DNA from: a virus
Length of the DNA stretch: 64,000 nt
Strand: one strand, 5' to 3'
Virus record (IMG/VR): IMGVR_UViG_3300033233_000006
Span: 67,252-131,251 of that record
Part shown: positions 44,573 to 47,500 of the stretch, one piece after another
Layout: each line of letters opens with the position of its first letter
Position numbering within the stretch: position 1 is the first letter of the stretch
Translations under genes and position numbers: made by a program
The notes under the pieces: model-generated
Databases searched by the model: none
The model's input: the letters and a program-made list of their open reading frames with translations, nothing else
What the model was told of the DNA's origin: nothing

Positions 44573-47500
44573 GCGGCTATCTCAACGTCGTGGGCGTATC
44601 CGACAACATCGCTTGGCTCAAGCAGGTTCCAAGTGGTTCCGTCGACTCGTGTTGTACCGACGCTCCTTACGGGCTCGGCGAACCGCCGCCCATCCTGTCG
44701 GTCCTGATGGCCTGGGCTCGCGGGAAAGACTTCAAGCCCGAGGGCGCCGGCTTCATGGGGAACGAGTGGGACGCCTTCGTTCCGAACCCGTCTATCTGGC
44801 GCGAAGTTTTCAGAATTCTCAAGCCGGGCGGCTGGTGCCTTGTCTTCTTCGGCTCACGCACCTTCGACCTCGGCTCGATCGCGATTCGAGTTGCCGGCTT
44901 CGAGGTGCTCGATACGTGCATGTGGCTTTACGGCCAGGGTTTCCCGAAGTCGGTCGACATCGCCAAGGTGGTCGACAAGGACGCCGGCCACTGGCGGGGG
45001 CGCGCGGGCAAGGCCGTCTCCGACAACCGCTCGATGGCGGCGCCGAACTACGAGCGGACGGACAAGGGCAAGGCGATCACCGAGGACGCGAAGAAGTGGG
45101 AGGGGTGGGGTACCGCCCTCAAACCGGCCTTCGAGCCGATCGTGGTGGCCCGGAAGCCGTTTGAGGGGACCTACGTCGAGCACGTCCTCGCGCACGGCAC
45201 CGGCGCGCTCAACATCGACGCCAGTCGCGTCGGGTCCGGCGCGGACAAGGGCGTGTGGCCGGCGACCGACCGCGAGACGCGGAAGTTCTGGGACAAGCCC
45301 TCACACCAGGCCGTGACGGACACGTCGGTCGGACGCTGGCCGGCGAACGTGGTCCTCGCGCACGACCCGCGCTGCGTGAAAGTGGGCACGAAGACGGTCG
45401 GCAAGGGCGAGTCGCGCAAGGGCAACGATTCGCGCGACGACAAGACGGTCATCAAGCCGCAGGTCCCCGTCGGAAGCCGCGACACCTCGATTGTCGACTA
45501 CGGAGCCGAAGTGGTCGACGACTGGAGGTGTGTCGAGGGGTGTCCGATCGGGCTGCTCGACGGACAAAGCGGCATCAGCAAGTCGGCGGGAGGCCGCATC
45601 GGGAACAAGGCCGGGATCGGCGCTCACGGGATCTACGGCTCCTTCGCGCCCGACGCCGTGAAGGGCGATCCGGGCTACGGCGACGAAGGAGGGGCGAGCC
45701 GTTATTTTAAGACCTTCCCCGAACCGTCGAGGACGGTTGACAACGACGATTCTTCTACGCATGATGGGGCGATATGCGCAGAGAGTGCGAACACTGCGGA
45801 ACATCGTTCGACGCCAAACCAAGCGCCGTCGCCCGAGGCTTCGGGCGGTTCCACTCCCGAGAGTGCGGGAGTCTCGCGAGGCGAAAGCGGGGTCGCGCCG
45901 ATGCCTGGCGCTACTTCTCGAAACGCGACGGGCGCTGGTACAGAAAGTGGCGTGAGCCGGGAAGCCGGAAGCTCAATTCCCAACTCGAATCCAGGTGGGT
46001 CTGGGAGCAACACAACGGTCCCATCCCAGACGGGCACGAAGTCCACCACGCCGACCTCGATCAGACGAACAACGAGTACGGGAACCTCAAGCTCATCACG
46101 GAAACGGAACACGACAACCTCCACGGACGACTCCGCGAAGACCACCGCGTCGTCAACGGCTGCGAAGAGCGGCGGTGCCAACGCTGTCTCCGGTGGAAGT
46201 CCATCGTCCGATTCAGCAAGAGGTCTGCCGGAACCTACCACGGCTACTGCAAAGGATGCGCGCGGAGCTATCTCCGTAAGTGGCGACGGGCGAACCGAGT
46301 CCACCACAACGCCTACATGCGGGCCTACCGAAAACCTCTCGCTCGACGGTAAGACGCGCTTCTTCTACACGGCCAAGGCTACGGCGAAGGAGCGATGGAG
46401 CTACTGCCGGGCGTGCAAGGTCGTCTTCCAGCACACGGCTGACGACGCCTTCGAGGAACACGACGCGCACAAGACCGAGGTGGTCTCGCATCCGACCCAG
46501 AAGCCGCTTGACCTCATGGAGTACTTCGTTCGGCTGGTGACGCAACCGGGCGGCACGGTGGTCGATCCGTTCTGCGGGTGCTACGACCCGCTCACATCGG
46601 TTCTCACCGAGCGCGGGTTCGTTTCGTGGCCGGATGTGAGGGACGACGACGTGTTCGCGTCTCGCGCCCCCGACGGTTCGATCATCTACCAGAAGGCCCA
46701 AGGCTTCGTGCGGACCCGCTACGTCGGCGTGATGCATCACTACGTCGGTCGCTCGGTCGACCTTCTCGTCACGCCAGGTCACAACATGCTCTTTCGGCGG
46801 CATCACGACGCTGACCCCACAAACTACGAGTTGATCGGGTCGGAGAACGCCGCTGAGCGCTTCTATCACATACCGAACACATCGACGTGGACCGGCGCGG
46901 AGCCGGATACTCTGCGCGTCGGAACACTCGACCTTCCGGCGCAGGCGTGGCTTCGGTTCCTCGGGCTCTACATCGCCGAGGGGTGCGTCGCGCGTAAGCA
47001 TAAGCGCGGCTACGGTATCTTCATCAAGCAGAGCAAGAGCGCCGAGGCGGTTGACGAGGTTCGGGCAACTATCCGCGGCATAGAGGTCGGGCGGCTCCGC
47101 GAACACACCTACGACGACCTCCACATCTTCGTGTGCCAGGAGAAGTCGCTGCACGCCTACTGCAAGGCGCTCGGCTACCAGCCAGACCGTCGCATCCCTC
47201 GCGAACTCCTCTCGCTCGGGCCGAAGCACTTGCGGGCGCTCTACGATGGTCTGATGCTTGGCGATGGGAGTCGCCGTAACGGTCGCGATTCTTACTGGAC
47301 GTGTAGCCCTGGACTTGCCGACGACGTTGCCGAGATGATGATCAAGCTCGGGTTAGCCGCTTCGGTCTCTGCGCGTATTCGCCCAGCACGGATCTGCATG
47401 GGTCGGATAATCAAGTCCGACCGCTATCAGTACTCCACGCTCGCTCGATATGCGCGAGAGACAAAGATCGACACTTACAGGATGCGTCGCGAGGTGCCTT

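Follow-up and report, generated by a model that had tools for sequence, protein, structure and literature searches.

How can a gene carry a second gene out of frame within it, with neither an intron nor an intein around the intruder, and still keep its own reading frame open from end to end? The question is raised by the window analyzed here, a stretch of 64,000 nucleotides (GC 63%) that covers positions 67,252 to 131,251 of the IMG/VR virus record IMGVR_UViG_3300033233_000006 and forms the 3' half of this 131-kb record. In it, a beta-class N6/N4 DNA methyltransferase (methylase) gene harbors an inserted element that encodes an HNH endonuclease in another frame. The element is probably a self-contained HNH homing cassette which sits in an open methylase frame and is read through without splicing.

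The proposed cassette would comprise a promoter, a short or absent leader, the HNH open reading frame (ORF) and its stop, inserted at the motif GGASRFF/YxAKAS (the slash marks the junction, here and below) of a phage beta-class methyltransferase. Its length would be a multiple of three and its codons would be chosen such that the methylase frame (HNH frame +1) meets no stop. Ribosomes translating the methylase would thus read through it and produce a hydrophilic linker of ~219 residues, rich in Ser, Thr, Gly, Ala and Pro, between the target-recognition region and the C-terminal part that binds S-adenosylmethionine (SAM), and neither RNA splicing nor protein splicing would be needed. The HNH would be made separately from an internal sigma-70-type promoter and would presumably cut uninterrupted methylase alleles at co-infection, whereupon repair would copy the cassette in (homing).

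The host gene (Table 1) encodes 1102 amino acids (aa) from the GTG at 44560, or 1099 aa from the ATG at 44569, and matches PF01555 (N6_N4_Mtase) at E 4.6e-20 (73 bits vs a cutoff of 26.7; Pfam). The nested ORF starts on position 3 of a methylase codon ((45774-44560) mod 3 = 2, i.e., frame 3) and matches PF13392 (HNH_3) at E 2.6e-14 (53 bits vs a cutoff of 24.8; Pfam) as well as several HNH endonuclease families of the PHROGs. The ORF listing and the two Pfam families thus confirmed what a first-pass annotation of the window, made from the letters alone, had described: an HNH ORF lying out of frame inside an open methylase ORF. The HNH protein carries an N-terminal CxxC..HxxxC zinc ribbon, and its residues H91, H92, N100, N104, H113 and H117 are invariant across its relatives (alignment A1); the copy in the closest relative, the viral contig L003, is 69% identical to that of the window. 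A sequence-profile search of the PDB with the HNH alignment returned 0 matches at E<=0.01, and NCBIfam gave no match for the HNH or for the intein that lies further downstream in the same gene (46579..47586).

The HNH ATG lies 71 nt into the insert and its TAA (46350-46352) 7 nt before the insert end, and the RFFY motif resumes at 46357, just past this stop. The ends of the insert are blurred by a few codons, because R-F/Y-F recurs at both of them. Over the 192 HNH codons the methylase frame contains 0 stops. The absence of stops and the in-frame resumption had both been claimed earlier and were borne out, while the insert, put then at about 210 codons, measured ~219. The host-frame (“shadow”) peptide of the insert consists of 66% S+T+G+A+P and 8% FILMVWY, in agreement with its earlier description as Ser/Thr-rich, and matches no family of Pfam, NCBIfam or the PHROGs. 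The same annotation had located the site in a variable region of the methylase. This did not hold: the site coincides with GGASRFFYxAKAS, a conserved motif that borders the variable region on its C-terminal side, ~40 residues ahead of motif X and at the end of the stretch that is not alignable to the methylases CcrM and DpnA. Homing sites usually sit at conserved motifs.

Table 1. Features of the invaded methylase gene, in window coordinates
Feature	Position	Strand	Basis or detail
Beta-class N6/N4 DNA methyltransferase ORF	44560..47868	+	Single ORF, stop-free across both inserts; PF01555
Upstream junction GGASRYFKTF, altered copy (“copy A”) of methylase motif GGASRFFY	45688..45717	+	
Inserted element, 657 nt = 219 host-frame codons, 0 methylase-frame stops	45703..46359	+	Alignment with L003 and uninterrupted methylases
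Sigma-70-like promoter TTGACA-17-CATGAT (putative)	45737..45765	+	Pattern scan, conservation
Homing-site-like 12-mer CGATTCTTCTAC in promoter spacer (“copy B”)	45747..45758	+	11/12 identical to 46357-46368
HNH_3 homing-type endonuclease ORF, 192 aa	45774..46352	+	PF13392, PHROGs
Downstream junction RFFYTAKA, resident methylase motif (“copy C”), in frame with N-terminal part	46357..46380	+	
LAGLIDADG intein, 336 aa, second parasite of methylase gene	46579..47586	+	Comparison with L003; PF14528

Is the open host frame selected? Codon choice in the HNH points to selection: all 11 Leu codons are CTC, all 7 Val codons GTC and all 3 Ile codons ATC, vs 30/51 CTC, 34/73 GTC and 33/42 ATC in the flanks (a hand product of ~7e-6 for the bias toward C-ending codons). 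In the methylase frame, an NTC codon yields TCN (Ser), while NTG would yield TGN (Cys, Trp or stop). Moreover, metagenome loci were collected by a search with the HNH protein which was blind to the other frames (n=57, GC 0.29-0.73). The insert was present in 56 of them, and the host frame was open over the whole HNH match in 53, while the third frame was open in 0/57. Three further loci (L082, L084 and L086) fail openness only because the HNH match abuts the contig end. The host frame was truly closed in L076 alone, where the HNH is not in a methylase but free-standing, between a ligase-like and a membrane-protein gene. Likewise, in 15 more distant free-standing HNH_3 relatives (among which L019 and L028 are identical in sequence and L030 is a doubtful homolog) both other frames were closed. 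Over 145 codons of the AT-rich L004, stops number 0 in the host frame and 22 in the third frame, and the GC range of 0.29-0.73 rules out composition as the cause of openness. Furthermore, L058 and L064 have a stop in the HNH frame within the match but none in the host frame, as selection on the host gene would lead one to expect.

Several points weigh against a cassette read through under selection: i) When the HNH protein was kept and its codons were redrawn from the methylase's own codon usage, the methylase frame of the window stayed open in 538/3000 and in 0.188 of 400 resamplings (P~0.19), and the open frame in this window by itself is not significant; ii) Resampling from host flank usage at 42 loci gave 2.4 expected open frames for 42 observed (median P(open) 0.006), but these loci (truncated loci, duplicates and L076 are left out of the set) had been picked for long host ORFs and the count is therefore conditional on openness, the unbiased count being that of the 57 loci; iii) Many of the 57 loci are near-duplicates (e.g., L035/36/37, L043/44, L047/49, L056/59, L039/40, and L072 = L004) and thus stand for fewer independent lineages; iv) The HNH perhaps arrived with foreign codon usage, which weakens a null model built on flank usage; v) The catalytic motif IV of the methylase reads DAPY instead of DPPY in both the window and L003, and methylase activity is therefore not assured; vi) The -10 hexamer of the putative promoter, CATGAT, reaches 4/6 and has no T at position 1; vii) The conservation of the HNH above that of its host (see below) may be explained in part by dual-coding constraint instead of transfer.

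The first and the fifth of these points would also suit an account by chance and decay, in which the HNH insertion killed the methylase, the frame is open since high-GC DNA is stop-poor and the ORF is a fossil; a reverse-strand frame that is also open across the same span points the same way. Against this account, the host frame is open in 53 (+3) of 57 relatives, which reach down to a GC of 0.29, where near 0 would be expected; all 21 Leu, Val and Ile codons of the HNH end in C, the downstream intein with its intact termini is kept in frame, and the residues flanking the insert on both sides, in both methylase halves, are near-invariant across the host ORFs of the relatives. We consider chance and decay very unlikely. 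The comparative data are decisive here: the methylase frame is kept open by selection, and the dual-coding parasite proposed from the letters of the window alone gains its support from the relatives. The host ORFs of 39/42 relatives match PF01555 (Pfam), and the host methylase gene looks alive; the enzyme may be active, with the linker in place.

What would this linker look like? The host-frame peptide of the insert is more hydrophilic than its codon-resampled expectation in the window (z -3.13), and such an excess was found in 34/42 loci (mean z -1.04). On composition and hydropathy only, the insert may be a tolerated disordered loop. As a separate observation, the host-frame insert has two Cys only (at 45775-45777 and at ~46317-46319), both of which arise from an HNH-frame ATG followed by C (the start codon, and the Met in NAYMRAY); these Cys near the insert ends may be a by-product of Met codons and not a clasp.

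Could the insert instead be removed from the RNA, as a degenerate or novel self-splicing intron that is nearly filled by its ORF, the open frame being incidental? HNH genes often lie within phage group I introns, and the insert start resembles the post-site sequence, as is sometimes seen for group I introns; both traits of such introns are discussed in the account of the “ShiLan” elements, hidden HNH inserts of mycobacteriophage methylases (PMC11855218). Yet an Rfam scan at E<=10 over 44000-48500 gave no intron family, the HNH ORF takes up all but ~70 nt of the insert, and the insert RNA folds no better than its shuffles (z +1.28). Selection for an open host frame would, moreover, be pointless if the RNA were spliced, and for the ShiLan elements themselves RNAweasel gave no intron signal according to the same account (PMC11855218). 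Removal at the RNA level is thus most improbable, and the methylase mRNA is predicted to be unspliced.

Removal or cutting at the protein level, by proteolysis or by a novel splicing chemistry, would leave an active enzyme made of two fragments in association, or of one religated chain. Being hydrophilic and of low complexity, the linker is of the protease-prone kind; relatives of the methylase work split (gp58 + gp61 of Mycobacterium phage Techage); and the same HNH lineage occurs inside true inteins (the terminase of L006, and P0135, P0139, P0142 and P0147). On the other hand, Pfam gives neither a Hint nor an Intein match within the HNH insert. The insert begins with Tyr-Phe-Lys and ends with Lys-Thr-Arg before Phe, so neither the Cys, Ser or Thr of an N-terminal intein junction nor the terminal Asn is present, and no sequence mark of a cleavage site is seen. 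Protein-level processing is unlikely, though somewhat less so than splicing of the RNA. On this negative evidence (Rfam, Pfam, fold z-score and junction residues alike) the insert looks like neither an intron nor an intein, which agrees with the earlier statement that no hallmarks of either flank it.

Nesting at the same methylase motif was found in the viral contigs L003 (GC 0.64), L004 (0.34), L005 (0.45) and L014 (0.58), and the HNH frame offset is identical in the window, L003, L004, L005, L014 and Mycobacterium phage Bipolar (L001). Among 22 related methylases, 13 have the uninterrupted motif GGASRFFY[VC]AKAS and none has the HNH motif; the empty-allele sequences among related viral methylases include GGASRFFYVAKAS, GGASRFFYCAKAS and GSAARFFYCAKAN. 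Among the contigs of three DNA runs, one was identical over the whole stretch and may be its source, the others were short pieces, and an empty-site allele was not seen; two apparent joints were disregarded, as their sides measured only 21-22 nt. Among RNA runs, none was found to contain 45300-46800. Identity between HNH copies is weakly coupled to identity between host N-domains (Spearman 0.24; 29 loci, 406 pairs) and exceeds it in 337/406 pairs, which fits transfer between divergent methylases. In particular, the HNH remnants of L058 and L064 are 89% identical while their host methylases are 50% identical, and the two look like decaying copies after recent transfer.

The HNH clade is near-exclusively tied to N6/N4 methylases and the element has its own conserved promoter; both traits would be compatible with a domesticated pair, in which HNH and methylase form an exclusion or restriction-modification-like module and the methylase shields the phage DNA, a speculation raised in the account of the ShiLan elements (PMC11855218). 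But empty alleles are common, the HNH frames of L058 and L064 decay, the same HNH is also found in terminase inteins and free-standing in L076, and a conserved coding motif as the site is what homing predicts. Domestication is therefore a highly improbable explanation, and the homing cassette remains the preferred one.

How common are such cassettes? The shadow peptide of the host frame was turned into a profile (A6, 42 rows) and searched against 1.84 billion representative proteins, which gave 780 matches at E<=0.001; 135 of the matched protein clusters reach E<=1e-10, and 89 reach E<=1e-30. A Pfam scan covered 89 of the 150 census matches listed: PF01555 was present at E<=1e-6 in 56 of the best 68, and 14 lower-ranked matches that were scanned comprised 10 methylases and 4 proteins with intein domains (2 of the 4 also with terminase).

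How would the HNH be expressed from within the methylase gene? The TTGACA-17-CATGAT element, already noticed in the first-pass annotation as the HNH's own promoter, proved to be the sole sigma-70-like match on both strands of 44300-48100 (3.8 kb; mean of 0.4 in shuffles) and is conserved in L003. Across relatives, a promoter score of >=10/12 within 130 nt 5' of the HNH was reached in 19/52 loci vs 10/1040 control windows from the same loci, with 12/12 in L046, L052, L056 and L059. In the relatives, AGGAGG-like sites often follow the promoter by 17-32 nt, with a few bases between them and ATG TGG. The -10 box of the window stops 8 nt short of the HNH ATG, a 9-nt gap taking the place of the leader with GGAG that is present in L003. 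Transcription from this promoter would thus yield an HNH mRNA that is likely leaderless or nearly so.

The spacer of this promoter holds a copy of the homing site (copy B), which in the HNH frame reads R-F-F-Y-A-stop. The 11/12 repeat alone is not significant, as ~0.6 such pairs are expected by chance in 771 nt (an estimate). However, the strict pattern xFFY[V/A/I](stop) lies in the HNH frame just 5' of the HNH in 19/54 relatives, with near-variants in several more, and the relatives' spacers (GATTTTTCTATG + TATAAT) match empty-site DNA, e.g., AGA TTT TTC TAC GTT. In these, TAT GTA TAA T doubles as “Y V stop” and as the TATAAT box.

Two readings of this copy could be entertained, separately or together, though only tentatively. 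It could be an operator, through which the HNH would repress itself as I-TevI does, and/or the fossil of a gene-splitting insertion; either way the element would represent a third, splicing-free route of sparing the host. In phage T4, I-TevI (and I-TevII/III) is described as autorepressed via a homing-site-like operator that overlaps its own promoter (PMC2988022). The likeness lies in a copy of the target sequence over the endonuclease promoter, 11/12 in the window and matching empty-site DNA in the spacers of the relatives. The difference is that, as far as that description goes, I-TevI is a GIY-YIG enzyme of a group I intron with T4 late/middle promoters, while repression in the window is putative. 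On the fossil reading, frame-shadow elements would stem from ordinary gene-splitting endonuclease insertions after RFFYV, and a 3n+1 duplication upstream would have slid the host frame past the stop, making the insertion harmless. The homing-site copy may also be merely an evolutionary relic.

Free-standing homing endonuclease genes are known to split a host gene into two ORFs, as in the T-even mobE/nrd cases. A comparable arrangement is seen with Techage gp58 + gp61: like the window element, such endonucleases have their own expression signals, sit at a conserved coding motif and involve neither intron nor intein; unlike it, they leave two polypeptides, whereas the host frame of the window is continuous. 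The Techage locus itself (L002, 1808-4190) contains a split methylase, in which gp58 breaks off shortly past AKAPGTER and the last 56 positions of PF01555 are matched by gp61 (84 aa); gp59 (262 aa, no Pfam family) and gp60 lie between the two. The arrangement resembles a gene-splitting insertion, again in this enzyme family.

Is the arrangement new? A 202-aa “ShiLan domain” in mycobacteriophage methylases was described by Gosselin et al. in 2023 (PMC9957025), and Arsenault, Gosselin and Gogarten reported in 2025 that ShiLan is an out-of-frame HNH in frame 3, for which their account gives a loop as the predicted structure and reports no features of an intron or intein (PMC11855218). Because no ribosome-binding site (RBS) was seen, leaderless translation in Mycobacterium was suggested there (PMC11855218). 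We found the ShiLan hallmarks at the ShiLan site in gp76 of Mycobacterium phage Bipolar (L001), a protein picked up by HNH similarity (ALK/PSYEPVCVAVK ... GRN/TAFEPIVVARK, 606 nt, cgTAAC). As published, ShiLan and the window element share: i) a PF01555 beta-class host with the HNH in frame 3 and a stop-free host frame; ii) an HNH stop at the 3' end of the insert, and an insert start that resembles the post-site residues; iii) the lack of intron or intein hallmarks, with an intein elsewhere in the same gene. Moreover, the HNH proteins are homologous (36-38% identity between the window and Bipolar copies).

On the other hand, the two differ in site (GGASRFF/YxAKAS in the window vs ALK/PAFEPIVVARKP in ShiLan) and in the site of the intein (motif I in the window vs WLYG/SGFPKS in Megiddo gp53). 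The window HNH starts with ATG after ~71 nt and has a sigma-70-like promoter, while the start described for ShiLan is a GTG 18 bp in, with no RBS reported (PMC11855218). Furthermore, the lineage of the window is found in metagenomic phages of GC 0.29-0.73, not only in Mycobacterium phages. Judged by sequence, the window element is a ShiLan homolog at another methylase site and belongs to the hidden-HNH kind already published, as a separate lineage or at a separate site.

As side observations on the ShiLan-type insert of Bipolar (L001, 2907-3512), the HNH frame has a TGA at 2953-2955, 3' of the GTG start used in the literature, and a GGAGG stands 4 nt before a GTG at 3001; the Bipolar HNH probably starts later than assumed, with a Shine-Dalgarno site in front of it. 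A scan of the Bipolar methylase gene gave no sigma-70-like promoter.

The hidden-HNH idea is thus not new, having been published in 2025 for mycobacteriophage methylases (PMC11855218). New are the breadth, the avoidance of stops at the codon level, a promoter belonging to the element and, in the spacer of this promoter, a copy of the homing site; the text of PMC11855218 mentions neither “promoter” nor “codon usage”. The site GGASRFF/YxAKAS is not described in the papers retrieved by full-text searches on ShiLan and on out-of-frame HNH genes with inteins and phages, the GitHub repository of PMC11855218 lying outside these searches. Many relatives have a promoter and a Shine-Dalgarno site, and therefore the Mycobacterium-tied explanation by leaderless translation cannot be general.

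Two further published cases bear on the comparison. In Pacc40 gp60, a second hidden HNH-like ORF was reported in a divergent methylase (PMC11855218); the likeness is an out-of-frame endonuclease-like ORF in an open methylase frame at a non-ShiLan site. By the published description, however, this is set apart by another methylase pham and a helicase fusion, and its ORF is weakly HNH-like and related to free-standing genes 5' of other methylases. Inteins with out-of-frame EndoVII-like nucleases were described in a 2025 preprint (10.1101/2025.01.02.630785); these, too, have a His-Me-finger nuclease in the other frame of an open host segment, and relatives of the window HNH sit in this way in terminase inteins (L006, P0142 and P0147). 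The difference is that in the inteins so described the shadow peptide is spliced out, whereas no splicing domain surrounds the window HNH.

Two such loci may be recorded here. In L006 (2231-4255), a terminase large subunit (Terminase_6N/6C + Intein_splicing) has an intein that holds an out-of-frame HNH_3, the host frame being HNH+1. In L008 (1599-3857), a 753-aa ORF with a weak intein match holds an out-of-frame HNH relative, the host frame being HNH+2.

Homing endonucleases have been understood to spare their hosts via introns, inteins or workable gene halves, and the window element appears to use none of these. If the proposal of a read-through cassette is true, stop-free dual coding would amount to a third means of sparing the host, one that needs no splicing and is widespread, being seen in at least 135 protein clusters, and the element would hop between methylase loops and intein scaffolds. 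The hidden-HNH report of 2025 then looks like the visible corner of a common strategy. Gene callers annotate oversized methylases and overlook the nuclease; the shadow peptide offers a handle by which such elements can be found through protein search.

The remainder of the host gene has the beta-class motif order, with DAPY in the N-terminal part, followed by HPTQKP and by DPFCG..TGST near the C-terminus; motif IV thus precedes the target-recognition domain, and motifs X and I follow it. CcrM and DpnA were the closest solved relatives when an empty-site relative was used as the search query. In a megablast of the methylase against phages, the sole match was a 155-nt conserved block in Mycobacterium phage methylases.

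The second parasite of the gene appears to be an intein by several features: the insert is precise and in frame, starts with Cys1 and ends with Gly-Asn before Thr+1 (Cys1 ... Gly-Asn/Thr+1), and matches PF14528 (LAGLIDADG_3) at E 5.7e-7. It splits the SAM-binding motif (DPFCG/TGST), and its boundaries were set by L003, in which this motif is uninterrupted. Gly stands in place of His at its penultimate position, and no match of the insert to the Pfam family Intein_splicing reached threshold.

Two neighbors of the locus were also noted. Directly 5' of the methylase, a 162-aa ORF (44084-44572) matches the PHROG “endonuclease” family phrog_2340 at E 6.5e-11, with a weak match to an HNH PHROG as well, and may be a third homing endonuclease of the locus, in this case a free-standing one. 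L003 is without this ORF at the syntenic place, where a DUF2325-like gene abuts the methylase. Conversely, L003 has a separate second N6_N4 methylase gene (4101-5036, 311 aa; PF01555 at E 3.6e-27), which the window is without and which sits between the invaded methylase and a deoxynucleoside kinase gene.

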